The notes: generated by a model from the sequence alone, not told the origin. 64,000 nucleotides of DNA from Deltaproteobacteria bacterium (GCA_016875335.1 VGRO01000003.1:10343-74342), one strand, 5' to 3'; shown: positions 7,891-41,490, counted from the stretch's first letter. Translations and numbers: made by a program.

Positions 7891-8109
7891 TCACTTCGCG
7901 CGGTAGGTGATCCGCCCCCGCGACAGGTCGTAGGGACTCAGCGCCACCTTGACCTTGTCCCCCGGCAGGATGCGGATGAAGTGCATGCGCATCTTGCCCG
8001 AAACGTGGGCCAGCACCTTGTGGCCATTATCCAGCTGGACGCGGAACATGGCATTGGGCAACGGTTCGAGCACCGTGCCTTCGACCTCAATGGCGTCGTC
8101 TTTCGACAT
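7891..8109 (-). CDS. infA: translation initiation factor IF-1
   Basis: [72 protein letters not shown]. The start ATG at 8109 was verified. Confidence 0.93.
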
Positions 8110-19984: not shown

Positions 19985-20014
19985 GGTGGAACCTCCGAGG
20001 CGAAACGCCTGGTA

Positions 20015-22102
<2,088 letters not shown>

Positions 22103-22198
22103 GATGGGCTCTCAGTGCGGCGGTTGCGCGGTTGCCGGCAGGGACCGGCGCTCAAAGGGTGGCGACCGTGGGAAGGGTCGCGCGGCGGAAGGGGTGGG

Positions 22199-22669
22199 CT
22201 ACCAGCGATAGTGGGCGAAGGCCTTGTTGGCCTCAGCCATCCGGTGGACGTCTTCGCGCTTCTTGACCGCGGCGCCGCGGCCCTGCGATGCGTCCAGGAT
22301 TTCGTTGGCCAGTTTCTCGACCATGCCCTTTTCGCCGCGAGCGCGGGCGGCGGCGATGAGCCAACGCATCGACAGCGCGGCGCGGCGTTCGGGGCGGATT
22401 TCGACCGGTACCTGGTAGTTCGAGCCACCGACGCGGCGCGACTTGACTTCGACGGCCGGCCGCACGTTTTCGAGGGCCTGGCGGAAGAGCTTGACCGGTT
22501 CGTCCTTGCCGCGCGCCTCGACGCGTTCGAGGGCCGCGTACAGCAGCGCCTCGGCCGTCGACTTCTTGCCGTCGAGCATCAGACAGTTGGCGAACTTGCC
22601 GACCATCTGATCGCCGTATTTGGGGTCGCGCAGGACGGGGCGGTGGGGTACTTCGCGGCGACGGGGCAT
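22199..22669 (-). CDS. rpsG: 30S ribosomal protein S7
   Basis: [47 protein letters not shown]...[22 protein letters not shown]. Confidence 0.95.
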
Positions 22670-22720
22670 GGGTTCCTCTCTGGATGGGTGCGGCGGCCCG
22701 CGACCCAGGTGCTGTGCGGG

Positions 22721-23128
22721 CTACTTCTTGCCTTTGCTCGCGGCGGCGGCGGCGCCTTCCTTGGGCCGCTTTGCGCCGTACTTGCTGCGGCTCTTGCGGC
22801 GGTTGGCGACGCCGGTGGTGTCGAGCGAGCCTCGCACGATGTGGTAGCGCACGCCCGGCAGGTCTTTGACGCGACCGCCGCGGATGAGCACGATCGAGTG
22901 TTCCTGCAGGTTGTGGCCGACGCCCGGGATGTACGACGTCACTTCCATGCCGTTGGAGAGGCGCACGCGCGCGACCTTGCGCAGGGCCGAGTTCGGCTTC
23001 TTGGGCGTGGTGGTGTACACGCGGGTGCACACGCCGCGGCGCTGCGGACAGGCGTCGAGCGCAGGCGACTTGGTCTTGCGGTGCTTGGCTGCGCGGCGAT
23101 CACGAACGAGCTGGTTGATCGTGGGCAT
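22721..23128 (-). CDS. rpsL: 30S ribosomal protein S12
   Basis: [78 protein letters not shown]. The ATG at 23128 was verified. The ORF-track extension to 23368 is upstream read-through. Confidence 0.95.
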
Positions 23129-23677
23129 CTGGGGCTGTCTCCGGGGGCGCTGGCGTTTCCCGTTGTCGAACCGTCGGTTGTGGACCCGCCGTCCAGCTGT
23201 GCGCCATACGCGCCATCGCCGGACGATGCGGCTCCATGGTCCTCGCGGCGGGGGCACCGCCGAACGTGGACCAGAGCGGCGTTTGCGACATTGCGCACCC
23301 AAGGGCCCGGTCCCAGCAGAACCAAGCCAAGGGCGACGGCAGTGTGCCGCGTCGCCAGGAGTCACCACTGAATTCGCAGCCTTTCCGCCCTCTGCGGATG
23401 TGGCGTGCGACCGATGGCGCCCATCGTTCCTTCGCGGAGGGCCGGGTCCGTGTAGGCCGCGGCCTCTTGCAGCACCAGGTGATCAATCCGTTGATCGCCC
23501 GCCAGCCGTTGATTCGGCTGATTTTCGTGCTGCGAAGGCTCCTTTCCCGATGGGAGGGCGGGCTGTCGGGCAGCCCGGTTGTCGCGCAAAACCCCGAGGG
23601 GGCCGGCGCGGGGGCGAAAGTTTACGCCTGCGCGGCCTGGGTGTCAACGGGGTTTTCTGGCCGGGGCGCACTGGATG

Positions 23678-24745
23678 TCATTCGCGCCAGATGAACTTCC
23701 AAGGGTGGCGCTTGAGGTCCTTGAGCAGCAGCTTGAGATCCATGAAGAGCTCGTTGTCCATCAGCAGCCCGCCGACCGTGCCGCGGCCTTTGCGGGCGTT
23801 TTGCGTCACGGCCTGGACATCGTCTACCGCGCGATCGGCTTTCTGAACCGCTCCGTCCATGCGGTCGAGCACGCCCGTCACCTTGCCGACCGCCTTGTCG
23901 CCGAGCAGGACCTCCGCGGTCGGTTGGTCGCGCAGCTTCTCCGACAACCGTCGGACATTCTTGGCGATAGCCTTGGCGTCGACCAGGATCGGATCGGTCG
24001 CCTCGTCCACCCTTGCGCTCACCCGCTCGACGTTGGCCAGGGTGCGCTTGATCTGCTTGCCGTCGCCGACCGAACTCTCGAGGGTGGCCACCAGCTTGTC
24101 GAGCTTGCTGCTGGTCTGGTCGAGGCGATCGAGCAGGCGCTTGACGGTGTCGCGGTTGTCCAGGATCAGTTGATCGGCGTCGTTGACGGCTTTCTTGGCG
24201 TCGAGCACCGCCTGGTCGGCATGGGTCAGGATGTCGCTGATCGTCGTCTCGTTGCGCTCGAGGATGCGCGTGACGGCGCCGGCGACCTTGGACAACTGCT
24301 GTCCCAGGATCTCCATGCGCAGGGGCGGCACGCCGACGACCGCGCTGTCCGTGCGGACGACGGGCCGCTCGAACGAACCTGGGTCGATCTCGATGTATTT
24401 TTCGCCGAGGATACCCTGGGTCGAGATGTAGAACTGCGCGTCGTCGTGGATGGTCTTGCCCTTTTCGGGTTCCAGGTCGATCCACACCCGGACCACGATG
24501 CGCCGGCCACTCTTGGGATCGCGCTTGCCGCCCAGGTACTCGATGGTGGTGACCTTGCCCGCCGACACGCCAGCGAGCTTGACCGGGGCGCCGGGCTTGA
24601 TGTCGCTGGCGGTGTTGTAGTCGATGGCGATCGTGTAACCGCCCGAACCGCGCAGGTCGCCCAACACGATGATGAAGCCGATGAGCAACGTGGCACACAC
24701 GAGCACCAAGGCGCCGACTTTGACCTCGATCGACTTTTCCTTCAC
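23678..24745 (-). CDS. MCE/MlaD-family protein (one transmembrane helix, an MCE domain and a long coiled-coil C-terminus)
   Basis: The TM helix is VGALVLVCATLLIGFIIVL. The MCE domain reads GGYTIAIDYNTASDIKPGAPVKLAGVSAGKVTTIEY...DAQFYISTQGILGEKYIEIDPG. After that come about 200 aa of heptad-like Leu/Asp/Lys-rich sequence. The start is probably the GTG near 24745. Confidence 0.8.
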   Translation of the reverse strand: MKEKSIEVKVGALVLVCATLLIGFIIVLGDLRGSGGYTIAIDYNTASDIKPGAPVKLAGVSAGKVTTIEYLGGKRDPKSGRRIVVRVWIDLEPEKGKTIHDDAQFYISTQGILGEKYIEIDPGSFERPVVRTDSAVVGVPPLRMEILGQQLSKVAGAVTRILERNETTISDILTHADQAVLDAKKAVNDADQLILDNRDTVKRLLDRLDQTSSKLDKLVATLESSVGDGKQIKRTLANVERVSARVDEATDPILVDAKAIAKNVRRLSEKLRDQPTAEVLLGDKAVGKVTGVLDRMDGAVQKADRAVDDVQAVTQNARKGRGTVGGLLMDNELFMDLKLLLKDLKRHPWKFIWRE

Positions 24746-24866
24746 GGACCGCCTCTGGCGCCTGGGGCCATGGACCGCGGCATGGTAGGGCAAACGTTGC
24801 GATCCGTCGACCACTGGCCCGACCGCCCGGCAACTGGCCGAGATCGATGGAGTTGGTCGCGCGCCA

Positions 24867-25640
24867 TCACAGGTCCATCGCGCCTTCGGCCAAGCCGCGG
24901 ATGAACTGGTAGATGACCCCATCGCGGCTGTTGCGAAAGTCGGCCGGCGTGCCGTCGAGCCGCACATTGCCCTGATAGATCATGGCGATGCGGTCGGCGA
25001 CGGTGAAGATCGAGCGCAGATCGTGGCTGACGACGATCGACGTCACGCCTTGCTCGTCGCTCAACTGGCGAATCAGCCGGTCGACGTTGGCGGCGGCCAG
25101 CGGGTCCAGGCCCGTCGTGGGTTCGTCGAAGATGACGAAGTCCGGGTCCAGGGTCAGGGCCCGCGCGATCGCCACGCGCTTGCGCAGGCCGTCGCCAATG
25201 TCGCTCGGAAAGCGGTTGGCCATGTGGTCCATCTGCACGCGCCGCAAGAAGCCGATCGCGGCGTCGTGGGCCTGCCTGTGGTTGAGATCCTTGTGCTTGC
25301 GCAGCGGCAGCATCACGTTCTCGACCAGCGACATGGAGTCGAAGAGCGTCGAGTGCTGGAACACCATCGCGCAGCGCATGCGCACTGGGTAGAATTCCTT
25401 TTCGCTCAGGTGGGTGATGTCGCGGCCGTCGAGCAGCACTTGGCCGGCGTCCGGTTGGATGAGGCCGACCAAGTGCTTGACCAGCACGCTTTTGCCGGCG
25501 CCCGACAGACCCACGATGAACAGGATCTGCCCTTTGTCGACGACCAGCGACACGTCCTTTAGAACGTGCTTGCTGCCGAAGGCCTTGCTGATGTTGCGGA
25601 ATTCGATCAATGCTCGGACCCTGGGCCCATGGGGTGCCAT
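24867..25640 (-). CDS. ABC transporter ATP-binding protein, MlaF-like
   Basis: Walker A is GLSGAGKS, the ABC signature is LSGGMRKRVAIARAL-like (GLRKRVAIARAL), Walker B is DEPTTGLD and the H-loop is VSHD. No permease gene lies between it and the MCE gene. Confidence 0.85.
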   Translation of the reverse strand: MAPHGPRVRALIEFRNISKAFGSKHVLKDVSLVVDKGQILFIVGLSGAGKSVLVKHLVGLIQPDAGQVLLDGRDITHLSEKEFYPVRMRCAMVFQHSTLFDSMSLVENVMLPLRKHKDLNHRQAHDAAIGFLRRVQMDHMANRFPSDIGDGLRKRVAIARALTLDPDFVIFDEPTTGLDPLAAANVDRLIRQLSDEQGVTSIVVSHDLRSIFTVADRIAMIYQGNVRLDGTPADFRNSRDGVIYQFIRGLAEGAMDL

Positions 25641-25724
25641 GCCCGTGGCCGCGCGCTAGCATAGCCGGCCGCAGCGGCGGCGGAAATTGCTCGCCCGCCG
25701 CATCCACCGGGAGCAGCCAAGGCC

Positions 25725-26066
25725 GTGTCGCGCGAGGAACTCATCGAAAGGTTGGACGACCTGCTGCACGATCTGGGCAAGCACCTGCTCTTGCCCGTGG
25801 CGCTGCTGCCGGCCACCGCGACGGCCGACGACCTGCGGGCCGCCATCGCAGCGGGGCTCCGCCAAGTGGCGGCGTGGCACGCGTTTCAGGCAGCCGGAGC
25901 GGCGGCGTTGGCCAACGACACCGGTTTCCGGCGGGTCCAAGCCACCGTGGCGGCGGCCTTGGTCTGGGCGGATGCGGTCGACGTGGACCGCGCCCAGGTC
26001 CAGGCGGATTTCGCGGCGGTCGGTCAGGCCGTGCGGGCCTGGCGCTTGCAGGTGGCCGGTGACTGA
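25725..26066 (+). CDS. hypothetical Ala-rich 113-aa protein; first gene of a translationally coupled regulatory operon
   Basis: It has a GTG start with GGAG about 11 nt upstream. Its stop TGA overlaps the GTG of the downstream sigma-54 activator as GTGA. I recognise no domain. Confidence 0.45.
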   Translation: MSREELIERLDDLLHDLGKHLLLPVALLPATATADDLRAAIAAGLRQVAAWHAFQAAGAAALANDTGFRRVQATVAAALVWADAVDVDRAQVQADFAAVGQAVRAWRLQVAGD

Positions 26067-27699
26067 GCGGCGGTCCGACCCAGTCCGGGTGCTGCTGGTC
26101 GATGACGGCCCGCGCTACCAGCAGACCCTGGCCGCCCTGGACAACGTACAGTTGCTGTCCATCGACGGGCAGTTGCGTGCGCCCGACGGCAAGGCTGCGC
26201 TGGACTGGCTCGACGGCCGCCGCGCAGAGGTCGACGTGGTGTTGCTCGACGTGCAGTTCGAGGTGCCAGACGATCGCCTGTTGCCGCTGGAGGTCGGGGC
26301 GTCGCCGCGCAAGACCCGCCGGTTCCAGGGCGTCGCCATCCTGCGCGAGATCCGCCGACGCTGGCCGGACCTGCCGGTGGTCTTGCTGACCGAATGGCAG
26401 GACCTTTCGCTGGCCGACGCCGCCGCCGACGTCTCGGCCACGCCGGTCACCTACTTCGCGGGCGCGGTGGACGCCGACACCTTGCGCATCCGGATCTGGT
26501 CGGCGCGCGCCGAGGCCACGCAACCGCTCGAAGACCAGGGGGTATTGTGGGGGCGGGACCCCGCGATGCGCGCCCTGCGCCACCGCCTGGCCGTGCTGGC
26601 GCGCGGCGGCCTGCCGATCGTGCTCGAAGGCGAGACCGGCACGGGCAAGTCGCACCTGGCGCGTGCGTTCATCCATCCGAACAGTGGCCGGCGTGGGCCC
26701 TTCGTGGCAATCGACCTCGCGACGGTGCCCGCCGAGTTGGTGCCCGCCACGCTCTTTGGCGCGCTGCGCGGCAGCTATACCGGGTCGGTGGCCGACCGCA
26801 AGGGAGCCTTTGAGGTCGCCCACAAGGGCACGCTGTTTCTCGACGAAATCCAGAATGTCCCGCTCGACATCCAAAAGCAGCTTTTGCGCGTCTTGCAGGA
26901 GGGCCGCGTGCAGCCCCTCGGCGCAGTGGCCGAGACCGAGGTCGACGTCAAGCTGGTGGTCGCCGCCAATGTGGCCCTTGCCGATCTCGTGGCGGCGGGG
27001 CGCTTCCGGCGCGACTTGTACATGCGGTTGTCGCCAGCGACCCGGGTGACAGTGCCGGCCTTGCGCGATCGGCGCCAGGACTACGCTTTGCTGTTGCGCC
27101 AGCTGACCGCCGCATGCGCCGAGCGGCCGGCTGTCCGGGCGTTGCTCGGCGAAGTCGCCAGCGGCATGGGCTTGCGTCGCGGGGCGGGCTTGCGGCTGGT
27201 GGTCGGCGCGGATATGCGCCATCCGCCAGCGGGCGACGCGCTCGAATTGGCGATGCCGGACGCCGCGTGGCGGGCGATCACCCAGCATCCATTCCCCGGC
27301 AATCTGCGCGAGATGGCCATGTTGGCCGAGAACCTCGCCAGCTTCACGTTGTTTTCTGCCGCCGAAGCCGCGCGGGCCGGGGTCGAACTGCACCACGGCC
27401 GCCTGCAAATCGATAGCGGTCTGGTCGTTGAACTGCTGAGCACGGCGCCGGCCGTCGAGGCGGTTGCGCCCGTCGATGACCGTGTGCCCGTGCGCGTGGC
27501 GCCGGCAGCGACCTTGGGTCAGTGCGCAGTCGCCGTCGAGCGCCAGGTCATGGAAGCGCTTTTCGTCCGCTGTCGCGGCGACCTCGGGGCGATGGCCGAA
27601 CTGCTGCTTGGCGACCGCGGCCGGGCCCGGGCCGTCCAACTGCGGCTGAACCAGTTGGGGTTGAGCGTGCGCCATCTGCGCGCCGACGGCGATCGATGA
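26062..27699 (+). CDS. sigma-54-dependent transcriptional activator (receiver, AAA+ sigma-54 interaction domain, Fis-type HTH) with a variant GAFTGA loop
   Basis: The receiver is VRVLLVDDGP...VDVVLLDVQF. The AAA+ core is LEGETGTGKSHLARAFH, GTLFLDEIQNVPLDIQKQLLRVLQEG and the arginine finger DLYMRLS. The C-terminal HTH is ERQVMEALFVRCRGDLGAMAELLLGDRGRARAVQLRLNQLGL. The canonical GAFTGA reads GSYTGS here. Confidence 0.85.
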   Translation, partial: TERRSDPVRVLLVDDGPRYQQTLAALDNVQLLSIDGQLRAPDGKAALDWLDGRRAEVDVVLLDVQFEVPDDRLLPLEVGASPRKTRRFQGVAILREIRRRWPDLPVVLLTEWQDLSLADAAADVSATPVTYFAGAVDADTLRIRIWSARAEATQPLEDQGVLWGRDPAMRALRHRLAVLARGGLPIVLEGETGTGKSHLARAFIHPNSGRRGPFVAIDLATVPAELVPATLFGALRGSYTGSVADRKGAFEVAHKGTLFLDEIQNVPLDIQKQLLRVLQEGRVQPLGAVAETEVDVKLVVAANVALADLVAAGRFRRDLYMRLSPATRVTVPALRDRRQDYALLLRQLTAACAERPAVRALLGEVASGMGLRRGAGLRLVVGADMRHPPAGDALELAMPDAAWRAITQHPFPGNLREMAMLAENLASFTLFSAAEAARAGVELHHGRLQIDSGLVVELLSTAPAVEAVAPVDDRVPVRVAPAATLGQCAVAVERQVMEALFVRCRGDLGAMAELLLGDRGRARAVQLRLNQLGLSVRHLRADGDR

Positions 27700-30473
27700 C
27701 CGGCGGCCTCGTGCTGTGGTCGTGGCTGGCGGTGGCGCCGATGACCCTGCCGGATGCCGCAACAGCGCTTTGCGCTGCGGTGCCCGATGATCCCGCAGCG
27801 AGCAGGGCCCTGGCGGCAACCCTGCTGGCCAAGGCCCGTGCCTTGCGCGAGGGCCGCGACATGGCGCGCGCTGCTGCCGCGCTGCGTCTGGCGGTGGCCG
27901 TGTGGACCAAGGATGCGGCCGCTTGGCACGAATTGGCGCAGCTCGAAGCCCAGTTGGGCCAGCCAGCTGCCGCAGAGGCCGCCTGGCGGCAGGCTGTGGC
28001 GGCGCAACCTGAGTTCGCGTTGGCCCGCCTCGCCTTCGCTGAATGGTTGGCCCAGCGCGGCCAAGGCGGCGACCTCGACCTTGCCGCCGAACTGCTGCGG
28101 CGAGCGCAGCGAGAACCGGGCGCCTCCTGCCTGTCCGCGCGCGTCGCCGCGTTGCGCGGTCAGTGCGACGACGCCGACCGGTCGTGGCAGGACTGCGCGC
28201 GCAATCCGCCGCGCAAGCCGAACCGCCCGCCGGTCGTCGAAGTACACCTGGCGCGCGGGCGCTGCCGGTTCGCCCGCGGGCAATACGACGCGGCCGAGGC
28301 GGACTGGGAACTGGCCGGCGCCGCCGGCGCCGACATCTCAGCCCAGCTTGCGCTTTTGGCAGAGGCGCGACGCAAGGTGGCCGTCGAGGCGCAGCCGGAG
28401 ATGCGCAAGGCCATGGCCACAGTCACCGAGTTGGCGCGTTCGGTCCTGCACGGCCTCGACCGCGGCCAGGAGCCGCCGGACCAGGGCTTGGCGCGCGCCG
28501 TCGCGGCGGCTCCAGCCGTGGGTATCGGCCACATCGCCCTGGGCGAACTTGCAGCCCGGCAAGGCCGGTTCGATCGCGCCGAACTGCATCTGCTGCGAGC
28601 GCTCGCTCTGCCGCTTGCCGATCTCGACCGCGGCCGCGCGCTGCGGGCGCTCGCCCGCCTGTGCGCCAGCGCGCAACCCGCGCCGCGGTGGGCCGAAGCT
28701 GCCGCCTTCTGGTCTGCCGCCGCGCCGATCGATGAGCTGCCGCGTGCCGACGAACTGGCGTGGTTGGAGGCGCTGCGCCGCACCGGTCAGTTGCGCGCGG
28801 CCCTGCGGCTGGCGACGCGTCTGTTGGCGCGCGCCGTCGACGGCGACGATCCGGCCGCTTCGGACTCGCTGCGCGAACTGCGCGCGCACAAGTTGGCGCT
28901 CGAATTGGCCGGGGGCACGACGATCGACGATCCGGTGGCCGCCCTGCCCGCGACCCACCCGGCGGCGCCCATCGACAGGGCCCGCGCCCTGGCCCGCGGC
29001 GACCGGTTGGCCGACGCCATCGCCGTCGTGCGCGCCGCGCTGCGCGACGGTCCGGCGCAGGCGGAATTGTGGCGCGATCTCGCCCACTACCAGCGGGCGG
29101 TCGGCGACGTGGATGCGTCGGTGGAGTCGCTGACGCGATCCCTCGAGGTGCGCGAGGCACAAGGGCCGGTGCACTGGACGCTGGGACGCTGGCTGATGGA
29201 TGCGGGCGACGATCGGACTGCGCTGCGCCATGTCCGCCGCGCCGAGTCCTTGGGGGTCGCAGCGGCTGTGCCAGTTGCCGTGCGCGCCGACCTCGACGAC
29301 CGTGCGCTGACGGGATGGGTGGGCCGCTTGGCCGATCGCGCGACGCTTGCCGCGCTGATCGCCCGCCTCGACCGGTGGGAGGCGCGCGCCCGCGCCGACC
29401 CGAATGTTGCCGATCGCGCCGCCGATGTCACAGAACTGCGTGCGGCTATCGCTGCGGAGCAGCGTCTTGCGGTCGCTGGCCAGGCGGCGCTGGCACTGGT
29501 GCTGGCCGCCGTCGGCGCCTGGGCGGCTTGGCGGCGTTGGGGTGGTGCGACGTTGCGCACGCTGGTGGCCGAGCATCCCGACACCGGCCCCGAGGTCCAG
29601 CGCATCGTCGCGGCCGTGCGCCATGAAGTCATCAAGCACAATACCTTGCGGCTCGGGGCAGCCGTGGAGGCGCTGGGTGCCGGCGACCGGGGCGCGGCGC
29701 TAGAGATCATCTACCAGATCGCCGGTCGCACCGACTCGCCGCGCGACAAGCTCGAGGACTACGCGGCGCAACTGGACCGCATCGGCAGGGCACGCGGGGT
29801 GCGACTGAACCTGCGCCGCCGCGACCCTACCTTCGCCGCGCTGTTTGCGGGCTTTGAGCTGCTCGGCGGCGCCATCACCGCGTTGACGAGGACGAGCCCA
29901 TGGCCGGTTGAGCGCCGCGGCCACGTGGACCGCCGGCTGCGCGCCGCCATGCGCATGTTGAACGCCAACGGCTACGCCGCGACGGCCACGTTGCTCGACA
30001 GCATGCGGCTCGTTCGGGTCGACGCCGTACTGCTGCGCGCAGCCTGCGATCAGGTGTGCGCCGAATCCGCGCAGGCGAGTGGGGCGATGACGCCGGTGGC
30101 CCTCGAAATCCACGTCGCCGATCTGTGGGTGGCGGCGCCGCGTTCCGCACTCAACGAGATCGTGGTCAACCTGGTGCGCAACGCGGTCCAAGCCACCCGC
30201 GACGGCGTGGCCGTCACCGTGGACGTGGACATTGCGCCGATCACTGCCCTGGAATCGGTGGTCGTCGCCGTGCGCGATCGTGGGCCGCCGTTGGCCGCGT
30301 CGGCGGTTGCACAACCCCAAGCTGATCACGGTCTTGGCCTGGTGCTCGCGCTGGTCGACCGCCATGGTGGGGCCCTCGAGGTCACGCCCGCGCCCGCGCC
30401 GTGGACCAAAGCGGTGGCGGTCCGCCTGCCGCGCGCCTACCCTACCGCCATGGAACCGTTGGCCGCGCTGTGA
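27696..30473 (+). CDS. TPR-repeat protein with a C-terminal histidine-kinase-type ATPase (HATPase_c) domain; putative sensor kinase
   Basis: The ATG overlaps the upstream stop as ATGA. There are about 600 aa of Ala/Leu-rich TPR-like repeats (AWHELAQLEAQLGQPAAAEAAWRQAVAAQPEFALARLAFAEWL...). The C-terminus carries the N-box IVVNLVRNAVQA and a G-box/D-box ...DRGPP...GLGLVLALV. No canonical HisKA H-box was identified. Confidence 0.75.
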   Translation: MTGGLVLWSWLAVAPMTLPDAATALCAAVPDDPAASRALAATLLAKARALREGRDMARAAAALRLAVAVWTKDAAAWHELAQLEAQLGQPAAAEAAWRQAVAAQPEFALARLAFAEWLAQRGQGGDLDLAAELLRRAQREPGASCLSARVAALRGQCDDADRSWQDCARNPPRKPNRPPVVEVHLARGRCRFARGQYDAAEADWELAGAAGADISAQLALLAEARRKVAVEAQPEMRKAMATVTELARSVLHGLDRGQEPPDQGLARAVAAAPAVGIGHIALGELAARQGRFDRAELHLLRALALPLADLDRGRALRALARLCASAQPAPRWAEAAAFWSAAAPIDELPRADELAWLEALRRTGQLRAALRLATRLLARAVDGDDPAASDSLRELRAHKLALELAGGTTIDDPVAALPATHPAAPIDRARALARGDRLADAIAVVRAALRDGPAQAELWRDLAHYQRAVGDVDASVESLTRSLEVREAQGPVHWTLGRWLMDAGDDRTALRHVRRAESLGVAAAVPVAVRADLDDRALTGWVGRLADRATLAALIARLDRWEARARADPNVADRAADVTELRAAIAAEQRLAVAGQAALALVLAAVGAWAAWRRWGGATLRTLVAEHPDTGPEVQRIVAAVRHEVIKHNTLRLGAAVEALGAGDRGAALEIIYQIAGRTDSPRDKLEDYAAQLDRIGRARGVRLNLRRRDPTFAALFAGFELLGGAITALTRTSPWPVERRGHVDRRLRAAMRMLNANGYAATATLLDSMRLVRVDAVLLRAACDQVCAESAQASGAMTPVALEIHVADLWVAAPRSALNEIVVNLVRNAVQATRDGVAVTVDVDIAPITALESVVVAVRDRGPPLAASAVAQPQADHGLGLVLALVDRHGGALEVTPAPAPWTKAVAVRLPRAYPTAMEPLAAL

Positions 30474-30946
30474 CCCCTCCCACCGTGATGATCGCCGAAG
30501 ATGGCGACGAATACCTCGAGACGCTGGGCCGCATGGGCGGCGAATTCAGCTGGCTGCAAGCCAAGAGTGCCAGGGTCGCTGTCGAGTTGGTTGGCCGACA
30601 CCCGGTGACCTGTGCGGTCCTCGACATGCGGTTCGACCGCGTGGCGCGCGGCGACCTTGCCGGCGATTTCACGGCTGCGCTGCGGCAGGTCGGCGGCGAT
30701 TCCGAGCGGGCGTGGCGCTATCTGGCCCAGCACCAAGGCCTTTTCGTCCTGGCGGCCTTGCGCGCGGCCGGCTGGCGCGGCCCGGGGCTCATCGCCTACG
30801 ATTTCACCCGCGAACTGCGGCGGTTCGAGGCGCTGCGCAGCCAATACGCGCCGCTGGACTGGATCGGCGACGACGCGACGGCCGCGGCGTGGCGCAAGAA
30901 GTTGGCCGCAGCTTGCGGCATCGCCACCGAGGAGGTCTTGTCGTGA
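30470..30946 (+). CDS. single-domain response-regulator receiver (CheY-like, no output domain)
   Basis: The GTG overlaps the kinase stop as GTGA. MIAEDGDEYLETL is the acidic pocket, VTCAVLDMRF holds the putative phospho-Asp, and a conserved Ala/Tyr region follows. Confidence 0.7.
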   Translation: MTPPTVMIAEDGDEYLETLGRMGGEFSWLQAKSARVAVELVGRHPVTCAVLDMRFDRVARGDLAGDFTAALRQVGGDSERAWRYLAQHQGLFVLAALRAAGWRGPGLIAYDFTRELRRFEALRSQYAPLDWIGDDATAAAWRKKLAAACGIATEEVLS

Positions 30947-31353
30947 CCCCCGAATGCATCCATCACCTCGGCATCGTCGTGCGCGATCTCGACCAGGGCC
31001 TCGCGGTGTGGCGCGACGGTCTCGGCTTGGCGGTCGAGCGCATCGTCGAACTGCCCGACCGCGGGCTCAAGATTGCGTTCCTGCCCTGTGGTCCGACCAC
31101 CATCGAACTCATCGCGCCGCTGCACGACCACAGCGAGGTGAGCAAGTTCCTGTACGAGCGCGGTGGCGGCTTGCACCACGTGTGCCTGCAAGTGCCGGAC
31201 ATCGCGGCGGCCAGCGCGCAGGCCGCGGATCATGGCCTGCGCATGCTGGGCGATGGACCCAAGCCAGGCGCAGAAGGCTTTCCGGTCCGTTTCGCACACC
31301 CCAAGACGACCGCCGGGGCCCTGGTCGAACTGTTGGAAACGACGAATGGCTAG
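30943..31353 (+). CDS. methylmalonyl-CoA epimerase-like VOC (glyoxalase I fold) enzyme
   Basis: The GTG overlaps the upstream stop as GTGA. HHLGIVVRDLDQGLAVWRDGLGLAVERIVELPDRGLKIAFLPCGPTTIELIAPL...GGGLHHVCLQVPDIAAASAQAADHGLRML closely follows the MCE consensus (HIGIAV.DLD...G.K.AFL..G.T.IEL..P....S....FL...G.GLHHI). Confidence 0.75.
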   Translation: MTPECIHHLGIVVRDLDQGLAVWRDGLGLAVERIVELPDRGLKIAFLPCGPTTIELIAPLHDHSEVSKFLYERGGGLHHVCLQVPDIAAASAQAADHGLRMLGDGPKPGAEGFPVRFAHPKTTAGALVELLETTNG

Positions 31354-31356
31354 CGT

Positions 31357-33426
31357 TCAGTCGGCGTCCGCCGCCGGCACGTTCGGCGCGGACTCTGCGG
31401 CCGATTCGCTGGGCTGCGTTCCGTAGAGCGAGGCGGCCATGCGCGCCTGGACCTCGCCGTGGCTCAAGTGCCGGCGCTGGACCAGGAACTGCGGCCAGAA
31501 CTTGTGTGGCGTCGCCCGAGCGCCCTTGCCGATGCCGGGCTGGTGGCGCAGCGCCCGCTCGATCAGCCGCGCAGCGTTGTCGCGCCAAGGGGCCGGCATC
31601 GCCAGCGCCTGCACCAGGGGGCCCAGGCGACCCGCGCCCAGGTCCACGCCATGGCGGGCGAAGCCGTCGCGCACCACTTCGGCGAGGCTGACGTCCGCGC
31701 CGAGGCGATCGAAGAACTGCGACCAGAGGGCCTTCTCTGCGGCGGGGTCGAGCGGTTGGTCCGGCGACAACTGCGGCACTCCCGCACCGTTCAGGGCCAC
31801 GAGGTCGGTCGTGACGTGAGCGGTGGCGCGCTCCAACAACTGCCGTGCGGCGTCCCGCACGGGCGCCTCGGCATCGTCCAACAGCGCCACGGCGGCGCGC
31901 GCGGCCGGCAACGTCGGGTCGTCGGTCAGCAGTTGGACGGCCACCTTGCGCACCGTGACGTCGGGCGTTGTGACGTCGCCCGTAGGGGCCGGCAGGGTAC
32001 GCCGATCACCGAAGGCCGCGGCAAGCGCATCCGACGCCCGCAGCCGGCCCAGCCCGAGCAGCATTTGCGCGGCCGCCAATGCCGCGGTTTCCTTGCGCAG
32101 CGCCTCGCCCAGCAACGCCGCGGCGTCCGCACGGTCCCAGTCGGCCAGGACGCGAGCCGCCTCCGCGCGCACCAGTGCCGAACGATCCTGCAATGCGTGG
32201 GCGACCTTGGCGTACCCTTCACCGTCGCGGTACAGGCCGATCAGGTACACCGCATCGGCGCGCGCATGCGCCTCGTCGCCCTCCACGGTCCGCCGGATGG
32301 CCTCCAACCGCGCACGCACGCCGGCCGGGTGGCCCCAAGCGGATTGGGGCGCCCGCGAGGCGTCGACGCACCCCTGCTCGCGATCGGCGGCCGAGCAGCC
32401 GATGCGCACATGCACGTGGTCGTTGTGCGGCATCGCCTTCTTGGGCTGGTGCACCTTGGCCGCGACCCGGGCGATGACCTTCTTGTCCACCTTGTGCTTG
32501 GCGGCGTAGTGCAGCGCTGGCCAACTGAGCCAACTGGCGATGAAAAGGTACTGCAGCTCGTCGCCCGAGCACTCGACCAGCGATCGCAGCAACGTCCAGT
32601 TCGCGGCGACATCGAAGGTGAGGGGCTCCGGCGCGTCGGTGGACTGGCCGCTTTGGTCAAAGTGGTAGAGGCGGGCCATGTCGGCCGGCCGGCCCAGGGC
32701 GTCGAGCGCGTAGAACGCGACATCGGCGTCGCGGCCATTGTGGTGCGACACGCTCCACGGCAGCGGTCCGCCGGCCTGTCGCGACAGATTGCCCAATTGC
32801 AGCACCCGCCCCGGGTGCTCCTTGGCGACGCGCTCGGCCGCGCACAGCAGCACATCGGCCATTGCGCGGGTCGTGAAGCGGGTGTTGCGCGGAGCGACCT
32901 TTTCCATGATCCGGTGGTGCGCCCCCGTCTGCGTCACTTCCACGGCCTCGGCGATGTAGCCCGCAGTGACGGTGCCGACACTGGCCGACCCGCCGCGCTC
33001 GCTGCCAATCCGCGGGTGTCGGCGGACGCCGAGCGGCATCACCCACGGGTCCAGGCCCGCCTCGGATTCGCGGCGGCCGCGGCGCATCAGTGGTTCGGCG
33101 ACGCGGAGTTCGCCGTCCGATTCGTACGCATGGGTGGGTTCGACCGGGCCCTGGGGCCCGAGTGCGGCGGGCGCCGCGGCCATCAACGGCGGCGTCGTCG
33201 GCGCGGGCGAGGGCCGCGGTTCCAGCGCAGCACAGGTCGTCACCAGCGGGATTGCTGCTGCAAGCACGGCGGCGCGGCGCCCGGCGATCGCCTGGAGCCA
33301 CTGCTGGCTGCGACTCAATGAAACCTGCGGGGGCATCGGCGGCCGAAAAGCGCAGGGCAGGGCGCCCCGCCGCAATCTAGCAAATCCAACGCAACGGTCG
33401 AATTTGCCGCGCTGGCAGCGACGCAC
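31357..33426 (-). CDS. secreted MepA-like (peptidase M74) murein endopeptidase fused to a C-terminal HEAT-repeat domain
   Basis: The M74 zinc-ligand motifs are SVSHHNGRDADVAFY and HNDHVHVRIGC. The N-terminus has a signal-peptide-like hydrophobic stretch (AAVLAAAIPLVTTCAAL). The C-terminal about 300 aa contains repeated helical pairs (ALVRAEAARVLADW, APVRDAARQLLERA) typical of HEAT repeats. Confidence 0.7.
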   Translation of the reverse strand: MRRCQRGKFDRCVGFARLRRGALPCAFRPPMPPQVSLSRSQQWLQAIAGRRAAVLAAAIPLVTTCAALEPRPSPAPTTPPLMAAAPAALGPQGPVEPTHAYESDGELRVAEPLMRRGRRESEAGLDPWVMPLGVRRHPRIGSERGGSASVGTVTAGYIAEAVEVTQTGAHHRIMEKVAPRNTRFTTRAMADVLLCAAERVAKEHPGRVLQLGNLSRQAGGPLPWSVSHHNGRDADVAFYALDALGRPADMARLYHFDQSGQSTDAPEPLTFDVAANWTLLRSLVECSGDELQYLFIASWLSWPALHYAAKHKVDKKVIARVAAKVHQPKKAMPHNDHVHVRIGCSAADREQGCVDASRAPQSAWGHPAGVRARLEAIRRTVEGDEAHARADAVYLIGLYRDGEGYAKVAHALQDRSALVRAEAARVLADWDRADAAALLGEALRKETAALAAAQMLLGLGRLRASDALAAAFGDRRTLPAPTGDVTTPDVTVRKVAVQLLTDDPTLPAARAAVALLDDAEAPVRDAARQLLERATAHVTTDLVALNGAGVPQLSPDQPLDPAAEKALWSQFFDRLGADVSLAEVVRDGFARHGVDLGAGRLGPLVQALAMPAPWRDNAARLIERALRHQPGIGKGARATPHKFWPQFLVQRRHLSHGEVQARMAASLYGTQPSESAAESAPNVPAADAD

Positions 33427-33456
33427 CGGTGCCGCCCTTGGTTCACGCCGAAGCGA

Positions 33457-34143
33457 TCAAGCCGCCACCTTGGCCGTGCGCCGCTTGAAGGCCTGGCCAA
33501 AGAAGTTGCCCAGGTAGCCGGCCGCCGAGCCGACCGAGAACACCATCGACAGGGTCAACATCAGCGCGCCCACCTTGTGGTAGTCCACGGTGCCGGACAG
33601 CACGATGAAATCGGTGTGCAGTTCGAAATGGATCAGCAGCCCCACCAGTCCAACCATTTGCAGCGCAGTCTTCCATTTGCCCCAGCGGTCGCTCGGCACG
33701 TCGAAGCCTTCGTCGGCGGCGATCGCCCGCAGGCCGGTGATCGCGACCTCGCGCGACAACAGCAGGATCGCCATCCACGCAGGTGTACGTCCCAGGTGGA
33801 CCAGTTCGACGAGGCACGCCAAGACCAGCAGCTTGTCGGCCAACGGGTCCAGGAACTTGCCGAACGCGCTCTGCAAGTTCAGGTTTCGCGCCAGCCAGCC
33901 GTCCAGGAAGTCGGTGATCGAGGCCACGGCGAAAAGCGTCGTCGCCCAGAACGCGGCGCGCAGCGCCAGCCATTGTCCGCCCGCCGCGCACGGATCGGAC
34001 AACTCCATCTGCCACATGACCAGCGGGATGGCGGCGACCCGACCCATGGTCAAGATGTTGGGCAGGTTGAAAATCTCTTCGCGAAGCGCCGACTTGGGGC
34101 GACCGGGCCTTCTGCGTTTCTTGGCGGGTTTGGCTTCGGCCAT
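33457..34143 (-). CDS. pgsA: CDP-diacylglycerol--glycerol-3-phosphate 3-phosphatidyltransferase
   Basis: The CDP-alcohol phosphatidyltransferase motif is ITDFLDGWLARNLNLQSAFGKFLDPLADKLLV, with multiple TM helices. The ATG at 34143 was verified; the ORF-track start at 34260 adds 39 non-homologous residues. Confidence 0.85.
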   Translation of the reverse strand: MAEAKPAKKRRRPGRPKSALREEIFNLPNILTMGRVAAIPLVMWQMELSDPCAAGGQWLALRAAFWATTLFAVASITDFLDGWLARNLNLQSAFGKFLDPLADKLLVLACLVELVHLGRTPAWMAILLLSREVAITGLRAIAADEGFDVPSDRWGKWKTALQMVGLVGLLIHFELHTDFIVLSGTVDYHKVGALMLTLSMVFSVGSAAGYLGNFFGQAFKRRTAKVAA

Positions 34144-34250
34144 GGCCGGCAGTATGGCACCAGCGGCCGCAGCGGCCAACCGGCGATTGCCGCGACCGGC
34201 GTCGCGCGCTACTTTGGCTGCCCCGTGCCGACCAAGGCCGCAGCGACACC

Positions 34251-34919
34251 ATGACGCCATCGACCCTGCACCACCTGGCCGCCCATCACGGCGACTTTGA
34301 CCAGTTCGCCGCGCTGATGCAGCAGACTGCTTCTGGCCGCTTCAATGAGGTGTTCTGGGGCGTGTGGCGGCAATACGTGGCGCCGGCCCTGCCGGAGACC
34401 GGCCGCGTCGTCGACCTCGGCTGCGGCCCCGGCGGACTTTTCGCGCCGTTGCGCGCCCGGCATCCCGACGTTGCCCTCATCGGTGTCGAAGTCCAACCCG
34501 CGATGCTGCGCGAGGCGAGGGCCGTGGCGGTGCATGTGCGTGCAGAGATCCTCGAGGCTGACCTCAACCTGCCGCTGCCGCTTGCCGACGCTTGCGCAGA
34601 CGCGGTGACGTTGGCCCACGTGCTGCACGAATTGCCCTGGCCGGTTCCGCTCTTGCGCGAGGCGCTGCGCATCTTGCGCCCGGGCGGCGCGTGCCTGGTG
34701 TTCGACTGGGTGCGGCAGCCTCTGCAGAGCTACGTCGAGGGCGCGGAACTCGACGAGAACCTCCTGCAGCACTTTCGCGAACACTGCTTGTACACACCCG
34801 ACGACCTCGCCTTCTTGTGCCAGCGCGCCGGCTTCGAGGTGCGCGAGATCATCGGCCGGCGCGGCGGACGCTTTGCCATGATCGCGCTCGCCCGACCCGC
34901 GCTCGCCGAGCCCACGTGA
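34251..34919 (+). CDS. class I SAM-dependent methyltransferase
   Basis: Motif I is VVDLGCGPGG, followed by post-I LIGVEV and motif II/III (AVTLAHVLHELP, LRPGGACLVFDW). Its stop overlaps the GTG of the downstream DUF692 gene as GTGA. Confidence 0.8.
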   Translation: MTPSTLHHLAAHHGDFDQFAALMQQTASGRFNEVFWGVWRQYVAPALPETGRVVDLGCGPGGLFAPLRARHPDVALIGVEVQPAMLREARAVAVHVRAEILEADLNLPLPLADACADAVTLAHVLHELPWPVPLLREALRILRPGGACLVFDWVRQPLQSYVEGAELDENLLQHFREHCLYTPDDLAFLCQRAGFEVREIIGRRGGRFAMIALARPALAEPT

Positions 34920-36565
34920 TCGCGCCGCCGGCTGACCTGGGTTTGGGGCTCGGCCTGCGCGGTCCGCACCTGGCGCAGTGGCTGCGCGAGCCCCCACCAG
35001 CCGTCCAGTGGATCGAAGCCATCACCGACAACTATCTGGCCAACCGCGGTTGGCTGCGCCGCGTGCTTGTGCGCTTGGCCGAGTCCCGTCCGGTCGTCTT
35101 GCACGGCGTCGGGCTGAACATCGGTTCGACCGATCGGCTCGACCGCATCTACTTGCGCCAGGTCCGCCAGTTGGCGGCCGAAGTCCGCGCGCCCTGGGTG
35201 TCGGACCACCTGTGCTGGACCGGGGTGGGCCGGCTGCAGACGCACGACCTGCTGCCCATGCCGTACACCGATGCCGCGCTGCACTGGTTGGTCGAGCGGA
35301 TCCGCGCGGTCCAGGAACTGCTGGAACGGCCGCTGGTTCTCGAAAACCCCTCGACCTACCTGGCGTTTCGCCAATCGACCTGGACCGAGTGGGATTTCCT
35401 GGCCGAGTTGTGCGAGCGCGCCGACTGCGGCCTGCTGATCGACGTCAACAACGTACACGTCTCCGCCTTCAACCACGGGTTCGACGAGGCCCGGTGGCTC
35501 GCTGCCGTGCCGTGGGCGCGCGTTTGGCAGTTGCACGTCGCCGGCCACACCACGTACGCGACCCACAAGCTCGACACCCACGTGGGACCGGTGCCCGAAG
35601 CCGTCTGGCGCCTCTACGGCGAGGCGTGGGCGCGCTGCGGTGGCCGCTCGACGTTGCTCGAATGGGACCAGGACATCCCAGACCTCGACGTCGCCGTAGC
35701 CGAGTTGTGCAAGGCGCGCGCGTGGCAGGCTGCCGAGCGGTCGAGCGGCAGCGTGCAGGCGCGCCGCGCCGGCTCGGCGGTCGGGGGCGACACCAATGCC
35801 CCGGCCGGGCTGCGCGCCCTGCAGCGCGCGGTGTTGCGGCAGATCGCGACCGGCAGGACGAGCACCGCCGTACAGCGACAGGTGCTGCCGACCTCGCAAC
35901 TGACCGGCCGCGCACGCGTGGCCATCCACGGCCGCATGTACGCGTTGCGACTCGACGGCGCGCTGGCCGAGGATTTCGCGAGGACCGCGCAACTGCTCGG
36001 CAGGCGGGCGTTTGCCGCGGCGTGTGCGGGCTATCGCAGGCGCCATCCCTCGCGGCACTGGGCACTGGAGCAGTACGGCATCCGGTTTGCCGCGTGGCTG
36101 GCCAGTCAACCGCGGTTCGCGGGCAACCCCGCGCAACTGGCGCGGCTGGAGTGGGCCGTCGTCCAGACGCGCCTGGCGCCGGGTTGCGACCCGCTGGCCA
36201 TCGACTGGGCGGACCGCGTCGGCGGCACGCCCTTGGCCCAATGCTGCTTGCGCTTTGCCCCGGGCGTCCGCGTGCAGCATGTCGCGCCCGAGGTGTGGCA
36301 CATCTGGTCCGGGCAGGCGCTGCGCAGCGGCAAGCGCGTCGCGGTGCGGCTTTCTCCGGCCGGGCGCCACGTGGCAGTGCGGTCCCTGTCGCCGGCCGAG
36401 GCCGCCGCCCTATCCGCACTGCGCGCCGGCATGCCCATCCTGCAAGCGTGTGCGGCGGTCGCGCGGCGGTCTGCGGCCTGGGGGGCCGAAGTGCAGGTCA
36501 GGCTGGGCGATTGGTTGCGCGATTGGGTGGCCGACGGCGCGGTCGTGGCGGTCGAGCCCGCGTGA
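34916..36565 (+). CDS. DUF692 (MNIO, MbnB/TglH/HvfB/BufB-like) enzyme fused to its DUF2063 (MbnC/HvfC/BufC-like) partner domain
   Basis: The N-terminal DUF692 signatures are GLGLGLRGPH, EAITDNY, HGVGLNIGS, SDHLCW, LENPSTY and LLIDVNNVHVSAFNHGFD. The C-terminal DUF2063 signatures are VAIHGRMYALRLDGALAEDFARTAQLLGRRAFAAACAGYRRRHPSRHWALEQYGIRFAAWL. No precursor-peptide ORF of 60 aa or more is adjacent. Confidence 0.85.
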   Translation: MIAPPADLGLGLGLRGPHLAQWLREPPPAVQWIEAITDNYLANRGWLRRVLVRLAESRPVVLHGVGLNIGSTDRLDRIYLRQVRQLAAEVRAPWVSDHLCWTGVGRLQTHDLLPMPYTDAALHWLVERIRAVQELLERPLVLENPSTYLAFRQSTWTEWDFLAELCERADCGLLIDVNNVHVSAFNHGFDEARWLAAVPWARVWQLHVAGHTTYATHKLDTHVGPVPEAVWRLYGEAWARCGGRSTLLEWDQDIPDLDVAVAELCKARAWQAAERSSGSVQARRAGSAVGGDTNAPAGLRALQRAVLRQIATGRTSTAVQRQVLPTSQLTGRARVAIHGRMYALRLDGALAEDFARTAQLLGRRAFAAACAGYRRRHPSRHWALEQYGIRFAAWLASQPRFAGNPAQLARLEWAVVQTRLAPGCDPLAIDWADRVGGTPLAQCCLRFAPGVRVQHVAPEVWHIWSGQALRSGKRVAVRLSPAGRHVAVRSLSPAEAAALSALRAGMPILQACAAVARRSAAWGAEVQVRLGDWLRDWVADGAVVAVEPA

Positions 36566-36572
36566 CGCCGCG

Positions 36573-41381
<4,809 letters not shown>

Positions 41382-41490
41382 GGTTGGCCCTGTCGCGGAG
41401 CGGGCGTGCGCCCTGCGTGCAGTCTTGCCGCCCGGTGGGCGCTGTCAAGAACCGCACATGGTTCCTTTCGGTTGGTTGCGGCGCGCCGCG

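Follow-up and report, generated by a model that had tools for sequence, protein, structure and literature searches.

Gene organisation at the locus

We analysed a stretch of 64,000 nucleotides from a Deltaproteobacteria bacterium (GCA_016875335.1, VGRO01000003.1:10343-74342), hereafter called the window, in which five consecutive genes, here named g1 to g5, join a predicted sigma-54 signalling module to a gene for a methylmalonyl-CoA epimerase (MCE) (Table 1). Since the GC content of the window is 68%, raw lists of open reading frames were uninformative. The GC content calculated by codon position delineated five consecutive genes on the plus strand, with frame switches near positions 26060, 27700, 30470 and 30945. 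This pattern bears out the five-gene, same-strand operon layout proposed in an earlier reading of the DNA made without database searches (the sequence-only reading), and all five co-directional genes are real.

Table 1. Coordinates of the features described in the text (positions are those of the sequence named in the second column)
Feature	Sequence	Position	Strand	Description
g1	window	25725..26066	+	113 aa; pattern of GC at third codon positions (GC3) supports the coding frame
g2	window	26059..27699	+	546 aa; predicted NtrC-class sigma-54 enhancer-binding protein
g3	window	27696..30473	+	925 aa; predicted TPR sensor histidine kinase
g4	window	30470..30946	+	158 aa; receiver fold, stand-alone; two helices inserted after beta3
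g5	window	30943..31353	+	136 aa; methylmalonyl-CoA epimerase (MCE) by family assignment, VOC superfamily
Conserved intergenic block	window	25653..25666	+	GCGCTAGCATAGCC; upstream of g1; near-identical in the window, L001 and L008
Sigma-54-type -24/-12 site near g1	L144	3283		
Sigma-54-type -24/-12 site near g1	L075	2282		
Sigma-54-type -24/-12 site near g1	L100	3190		
Sigma-54-type -24/-12 site near g1	L119	3071		
Sigma-54-type -24/-12 site near g1	L097	2834		
APP1-like/upstream genes	L067	5-2298		
APP1-like/upstream genes	L070	1-2285		
APP1-like/upstream genes	L075	1-2211		
APP1-like/upstream genes	L144, L142, L134, others			

The sequence-only reading had described the four gene junctions as 4-nt start/stop overlaps. 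Three of them are indeed of this kind, namely g2/g3 (ATGA, 27696-27699), g3/g4 (GTGA, 30470-30473) and g4/g5 (GTGA, 30943-30946), whereas g1 and g2 overlap by 8 nt (GTGACTGA): g2 starts with the GTG at 26059 and g1 stops with the TGA at 26064-26066, the TGA within the GTGA reported at 26062 being out of frame for g1. The GTG start of g5 is preceded, 7 nt upstream, by a GGAGG Shine-Dalgarno sequence. The start of g4 can be placed in two ways. A database entry 100% identical to g4 (P0007) is 152 aa long, which fits an alternative start at ATG 30488 and a gap of 14 nt after g3. As the g3/g4 junction is ATGA or GTGA in the orthologous loci L001, L005, L008, L011 and L013, the start at 30470 is favoured over 30488.

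Start/stop overlaps are a sign of co-transcription and of possible translational coupling and do not impose a fixed 1:1 stoichiometry, so the constant proportions that had been read from the junctions find no support in them. The gene tables of these genomes list 4-nt overlaps between adjacent genes of unrelated kinds as well; such overlaps are thus not unusual in themselves. The neighbours of the operon are a divergent ABC-ATPase/MlaD pair upstream and, downstream, a convergent M74-peptidase/HEAT gene whose stop lies 3 nt from that of g5 (31351-31359), with no terminator-like structure between the two stops. A consensus scan of positions 25400-31700 returned no intrinsic terminator, Rfam gave no match within 20000-37000, and the repeat search yielded GC-rich chance matches only.

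Identification of the encoded proteins

The domain, profile and structure comparisons largely agreed with the identities that the sequence-only reading had given to g2, g3, g4 and g5 (PF00158, TPR with HATPase_c, a receiver fold and TIGR03081, respectively). The g2 protein matches the Sigma54_activat family (PF00158) with 170 bits and an E-value of 4.7e-50, over profile positions 2 to 163 of 168, and the Response_reg family weakly (32.6 bits). Its NCBIfam matches (NorR, NtrC, RtcR and others) are all far below the cut-offs. The receiver is atypical: D15, D16, D64 and T111 are present, an insertion follows D64 and the conserved Lys is missing. At the C-terminus, a conserved segment (MAELLLGD...QLRLNQLGL) appears Fis-like by eye, and is divergent. 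Judged from these matches, g2 belongs to the NtrC class of AAA+ activators, and its receiver has retained the phospho-acceptor Asp.

In the g3 protein, an N-terminal hydrophobic segment precedes a region of TPR repeats of about 570 aa. Hydropathy peaks at residues 590-612, a stretch interpreted as a transmembrane helix that divides this TPR part from the cytoplasmic part. Pfam detects TPR families and HATPase_c (PF02518, 32.5 bits) and gives no HisKA match. About 30 residues past the transmembrane helix lies an H-box, RHEVIKH (H643), with the invariant pattern RHE(V/I/L)(L/I)KH; 13 g3 orthologues share without exception the R-H-E residues, H648, the N-box (NLxRNA) and the GLGL box. In the PDB, the g3 profile matches the catalytic domains of ZraS and NtrB. 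With the C-terminal region as query, a search of 1.84 billion cluster representatives retrieved 250 relatives (clusters at 50% identity) at E<=1e-10; with few exceptions these are 860 to 1000 aa long, match at their C-terminus and share the same architecture. By these profile and hydropathy data, g3 is a membrane-bound histidine kinase that combines a large TPR domain with an ATP-binding domain resembling those of NtrB and ZraS.

No Pfam (including PF00072) or NCBIfam match was found for g4. Its AlphaFold2 (AF2) model, with a mean confidence (pLDDT) of 96.1, displays a CheY-type (beta/alpha)5 fold with a two-helix insertion after beta3. The top 50 matches of this model in a Foldseek search of the PDB are all receiver-containing chains (a putative LuxO receiver domain, AdeR, Spo0F and PhoP among them), with target-normalised TM-scores of at most 0.80. 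An acidic pocket formed by E10, D11 and D52 is invariant in 60 sequences, and the profile search retrieved more than 1000 g4-like proteins. The g4 protein and the g2 receiver share 28% identity over 61 residues with an E-value of 0.012, which is suggestive only of a paralogy between them.

The g1 protein likewise lacks any Pfam or NCBIfam match. The same 113-aa protein occurs on a JGI contig (P0138), and all loci examined have a g1 orthologue immediately before g2. Its AF2 model is a helical bundle of five helices (pLDDT 89.7), of which helix 1 bears the motif H15-D16-x-G18-K19 (HDxGK), invariant across orthologues. When the g1 profile was searched against the PDB, only coiled-coil noise was recovered, and the best hhalign alignment placed RHDLGK of g1 onto RHEVLKH of g3 with an E-value of 0.058 and a probability below 1%. 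On the basis of its modelled fold and invariant His, g1 is a candidate His-phosphotransfer or accessory protein. HDxGK also resembles the signature of HD-domain phosphohydrolases; this assignment was rejected for a protein of about 113 aa with no upstream His and no Pfam HD match. In the window and L001, g1 is devoid of an 11-residue segment (TRRGxxG) that most other orthologues keep.

Conservation of the four-gene cassette

A first search with the whole kinase recovered three relatives only. One of them, an orthologue with 65% identity, belongs to a metagenome-assembled genome (MAG) in which the five genes are all present, overlap in the same way and have the same flanks. A larger set of 155 loci was gathered by scanning genomes with the alignment of the activator, by searching with the g4 profile, by genomic context look-ups and by scanning metagenomes with the H-box pattern of the kinase. 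The cassette proteins were compared with the 155 loci using tblastn and, after de-duplication, 83 distinct loci were retained. Of the 77 loci whose sequence extends far enough, 76 have g4 within 200 nt after g3; 47 loci display the order g1<g2<g3. Even distant orthologous loci have 4- or 8-nt overlaps among their g1-g4 genes, and the tight packing is therefore conserved. The conserved unit, over the 83 distinct loci, is thus g1-g2-g3-g4, mostly overlapping, and the MCE gene does not travel along with it. The unit is spread among many uncultured bacteria. The signalling relay that the sequence-only reading had considered complete would have one more component, g1, which that reading had left unnamed and which is a conserved member of the cassette. 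Literature searches returned no description of the g1-g4 cassette.

The surroundings of the cassette are variable. The gene following g4 is a convergent acetyltransferase in 9 loci and, in others, a peptidase M24, an FGE-sulfatase-like protein, an OmpR-TPR regulator or a protein of no assigned family. The neighbour that recurs most, immediately before g1 in 13 of 46 loci, is an APP1_cat-like gene (about 320 aa, phosphatidate phosphatase family), often itself preceded by a gene of about 430 aa with no Pfam match; the window contains neither of the two. The frequent presence of this APP1-like lipid phosphatase hints at a role of the cassette in the control of envelope or lipid homeostasis.

Two loci call for separate mention. 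L012 (5688-9638) has the order g3-g4-g1-g2, tightly packed, and its kinase of 498 aa is devoid of most of the TPR region. L010/L072 (CAMAWH010000095.1) comes from a MAG record labelled Klebsiella pneumoniae; with 65% GC and a Myxococcota-type cassette, this record is probably mis-binned or mislabelled.

The methylmalonyl-CoA epimerase gene

The g5 protein scores 126.7 bits against the TIGR03081 MCE equivalog (cut-off 114.95), over the full profile (1 to 129 of 129), and 80 bits against Glyoxalase_4. The sequence-only reading had considered that g5 might turn out to be a glyoxalase unrelated to the epimerase family; the equivalog score places it within that family. The alignment with human MCEE (3RMU), 3OA4 and the Propionibacterium shermanii enzyme (1JC4) extends over the whole of g5. 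Residues H8, E55, H79 and E129 correspond to identical residues in 3RMU and 3OA4; we take them to be the metal and catalytic-site His/Glu residues of the VOC fold, by reference to the P. shermanii structure. By profile and alignment, g5 is a genuine member of the MCE family.

Among the 61 loci informative on this point, an MCE gene directly follows g4 in three: the window, L001 (with its duplicates) and L008. The other 58 have no MCE after g4, nor elsewhere in the DNA fetched (at most 7-10 kb on each side). The upstream ABC/MlaD pair is shared by the window, L001 and L008, and the downstream M74 gene by the window and L001. These common flanks in all three MCE-bearing loci indicate one inherited arrangement and therefore one evolutionary event. 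Only the window and L001 have the 4-nt overlap of g4 and g5; the two genes are set apart by a 35-nt spacer in L008, where g5 has its own AGGAG Shine-Dalgarno sequence. Identities among the three relatives amount to 77-81% for g5 versus 43-66% for g3, as expected of a housekeeping enzyme. The window itself is a housekeeping region, encoding ribosomal proteins, SecY, EF-G, SecA, AspRS and Lnt. No gene for methylmalonyl-CoA mutase, propionyl-CoA carboxylase or a polyketide synthase (PKS) was found in the 64 kb of the window, and literature searches found no described link between MCE and sigma-54.

The sequence-only reading had proposed that the sigma-54 module senses or controls the flux of methylmalonyl-CoA, the MCE being its dedicated output produced in fixed proportion. 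That g5 is a real MCE, that it overlaps g4 in the window and L001 and that the adjacency was kept in three genomes would all fit this explanation. We nevertheless consider it improbable and, as a claim on sensing, unsupported, since the 58 loci without MCE leave a single clade, and a single evolutionary event, to carry it. The spacer and separate Shine-Dalgarno sequence of L008 and the lack of mutase, carboxylase and PKS genes in the window also argue against it, an overlap does not set stoichiometry, and a TPR sensor, if periplasmic as we propose below, would be an odd detector of a cytoplasmic CoA thioester. Our verdict, drawn from comparison of the loci, is that g5 would be a lineage-specific, co-transcribed passenger at the 3' end of the cassette in one clade of Myxococcota.

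Upstream region and sigma-54 promoter sites

A block of 14 nt upstream of g1, GCGCTAGCATA(G/C)CC, is kept in the window, in L001 (about 7955-7975) and in L008 (about 2700-2715), while the surrounding intergenic DNA has diverged. It may correspond to a -10 element TAGCAT (25657-25662) with a -35 element GTGCCA (25634-25639) located 17 nt upstream, or to an operator. The consensus scan of 25400-31700 reported no sigma-70-type site.

Sigma-54 sites were scored with a weighted TGGCACG-N4-TTGCW pattern having a maximum of 20. A sigma-54-like site overlapping the conserved block, TGGCCGCGCGCTAGCA (25646-25661), reaches 16.5/20. It was rejected as evidence for a promoter of g1 because 101 sites of the 64-kb window score equally well or better and because its GG is not kept in L001 and L008. 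The two best sigma-54-like sites of the window (12619 and 55934) were also discarded, both being within coding regions. Upstream of g1 in other lineages, sites scoring at least 18/20 within 250 nt were found in 5 of 47 loci, versus 0.56 expected from the background rate, an enrichment of about 9-fold. The L144 site is a perfect consensus (TGGCACGCACCTTGCT), and those of L075 and L100 read GGGCACGGA(C/G)CTTGCT. In L075 and L144 the site is located between the APP1-like gene and g1. These sites suggest that sigma-54-dependent autoregulation of the cassette would operate in some lineages. As candidates for the sigma-54 promoters that the sequence-only reading had proposed to look for in the neighbouring DNA, such sites were found upstream of g1 in other loci, and not as a conserved site near the cassette of the window.

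Proposed signalling pathway

From these data taken together, we find it probable that four genes of the locus form a sigma-54 signalling cassette, conserved and uncharacterised, to which a housekeeping-type MCE gene was joined on the 3' side in one lineage of Myxococcota. In this proposal the TPR domain of g3 would be periplasmic and would sense an envelope or extracellular cue. The kinase would then autophosphorylate on H643 and the phosphoryl group would reach D64 of g2. Phosphorylated g2 would assemble and activate sigma-54 promoters; in some lineages these would include a promoter immediately before g1, by which the cassette would regulate itself. The g5 enzyme would simply be co-transcribed and take part in ordinary propionyl-CoA/methylmalonyl-CoA metabolism, outside the signalling logic.

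For the wiring of the pathway, our tentative preference goes to a split His-Asp-His-Asp relay, in which phosphate would pass from H643 of g3 to D52 of g4, then to H15 of g1 and finally to D64 of g2; we regard it as possible rather than probable. This scheme is favoured because the cassette would supply each of its four stations once and no more: the His of the kinase, the Asp of the stand-alone receiver g4, the invariant His of the small helical protein g1 and the receiver-activator g2. Relays of this kind have precedents in LuxQ-LuxU-LuxO and in KinA-Spo0F-Spo0B-Spo0A. The broader proposal that g1-g4 would constitute a widespread, undescribed four-component phosphorelay, with a new HDxGK family and a variant-L1 sigma-54 activator, chiefly among uncultured Myxococcota but in other phyla as well, is in our view doubtful.

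Several observations weigh against the proposed cassette pathway and its components. Concerning g1, the Foldseek search of the PDB with its fold was not significant (best E-value 0.6, CheA P1 at about 1), no significant sequence or fold match relates it to Hpt (PF01627), Spo0B or DHp, and its HDxGK motif differs from the HxxKG of Hpt. Concerning g4, there is no Thr/Ser at the end of beta4, where an invariant D-F is found (YDF in the window), and no conserved Lys after beta5; given the absence of these canonical residues, g4 may be a pseudo-receiver. Concerning g2, the L1 loop reads GSYTGS versus GAFTGA, a change at three of six positions by which Phe becomes Tyr and both Ala become Ser, HTH_8 was not found by Pfam at E<=0.1, and the window clade (window, L001 and L008) has no conserved sigma-54 promoter upstream of g1. 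Finally, g4 and MCE are still adjacent in three genomes between which identity in g3 has fallen to as little as 43%, and selection for this linkage within the clade therefore keeps some plausibility.

The features of g1 and g4 lend themselves to another wiring, a branched system in which g3 would phosphorylate g2 directly, g4 would act as a phosphate sink or an allosteric regulator of the kinase, and g1 would be a non-phosphorylated accessory protein such as an inhibitor or a scaffold, the MCE being again a passenger. The g2 receiver keeps its Asp and Thr and could accept phosphate straight from an NtrB/ZraS-like kinase. In addition, g4 is devoid of the Thr and Lys, g1 has no detectable similarity to Hpt, and the loss of the 11-residue segment by g1 of the window and L001 suggests a relaxed constraint. 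A mere scaffold, however, would leave unexplained the invariance of the His of g1, together with that of the D, G and K, in all orthologues, and the strict co-occurrence of one H-protein and one D-protein beside a kinase and a regulator fits the relay. The branched system thus seems rather unlikely to us, and is nonetheless a serious rival to the relay.

The changes in g2 could also mean that this protein is a sigma-54-independent AAA+ regulator or remodeller. Indeed, the alteration of the L1 loop is itself conserved, G-x-Y-T-G-S being invariant in three g2 orthologues, and this explanation would account for the missing HTH_8 and for the cassette of the window having no conserved sigma-54 promoter nearby. 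Yet the match to PF00158 is strong and full-length, and the Thr of the loop is kept. The Phe to Tyr change is functional in HrpS, whose natural loop GAYTGA works (PMC3105312). Together with the enrichment of consensus-grade sigma-54 sites upstream of g1 in other lineages, this makes a sigma-54-independent function highly improbable, and we retain g2 as a predicted sigma-54 activator.

Other genes of the window

Two further regions of the window were annotated. On the plus strand, 34251-36565 encodes a class I methyltransferase followed by a gene in which MbnB/TglH/ChrH (326 bits) and DUF2063 are fused. This pair resembles a modification pair of the type associated with ribosomally synthesised and post-translationally modified peptides (RiPP) or an HvfB/HvfC-like pair, and is found at the same position in the related MAG. 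On the minus strand, 36573-41444 encodes a protein of 1,623 aa with Dictyostelium CTDC repeats, three Laminin_G_3 domains and DUF4215, which looks like a large secreted or surface protein.

Significance and comparison with known systems

A link between sigma-54 signalling and methylmalonyl-CoA would, if true, matter for polyketide and lipid metabolism; the comparison of loci points instead to a lineage-specific adjacency. The novelty of the locus then resides in the cassette: g1 and the receiver variant of g4 stand for two families that no model of Pfam or NCBIfam matches, the H-box of the kinase is non-canonical, and the sigma-54 contact loop of the activator is a variant one. Since the cassette is present in hundreds of metagenome sequence clusters, its characterisation would give two-component and sigma-54 biology a new wiring variant, along with natural variants of the GAFTGA loop and of the receiver for mechanistic study.

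Like the enzymes of the TIGR03081 family (3RMU, 1JC4), g5 passes the equivalog cut-off and aligns from end to end. Its genomic setting is different, as it tails a signalling operon in a ribosomal/Sec housekeeping region, away from any mutase or carboxylase neighbour.

With the NtrB-NtrC and ZraS-ZraR systems, the cassette has in common a related kinase catalytic domain, a receiver-AAA+ activator (PF00158) and adjacent kinase and regulator genes. It differs from them in the sensor of the kinase, a TPR region of about 570 aa, in an H-box, RHExxKH, that is not recognised by HisKA, and in the activator, whose receiver carries an insertion and no Lys and whose L1 loop reads G[AS]YTGS. The conserved g1 and g4 come in addition.

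Relative to the LuxQ/LuxU/LuxO and KinA-Spo0F-Spo0B-Spo0A relays, the cassette consists of four separate, co-translated genes, its g1 has no detectable homology to Hpt or Spo0B, and its g4 is without the Thr and Lys. Its likeness to these relays lies in the series of predicted phosphorylation sites, with a kinase His, a receiver Asp, a His on a helical bundle and a regulator Asp, and, as in the Lux relay, the terminus of the series would be a sigma-54 activator.

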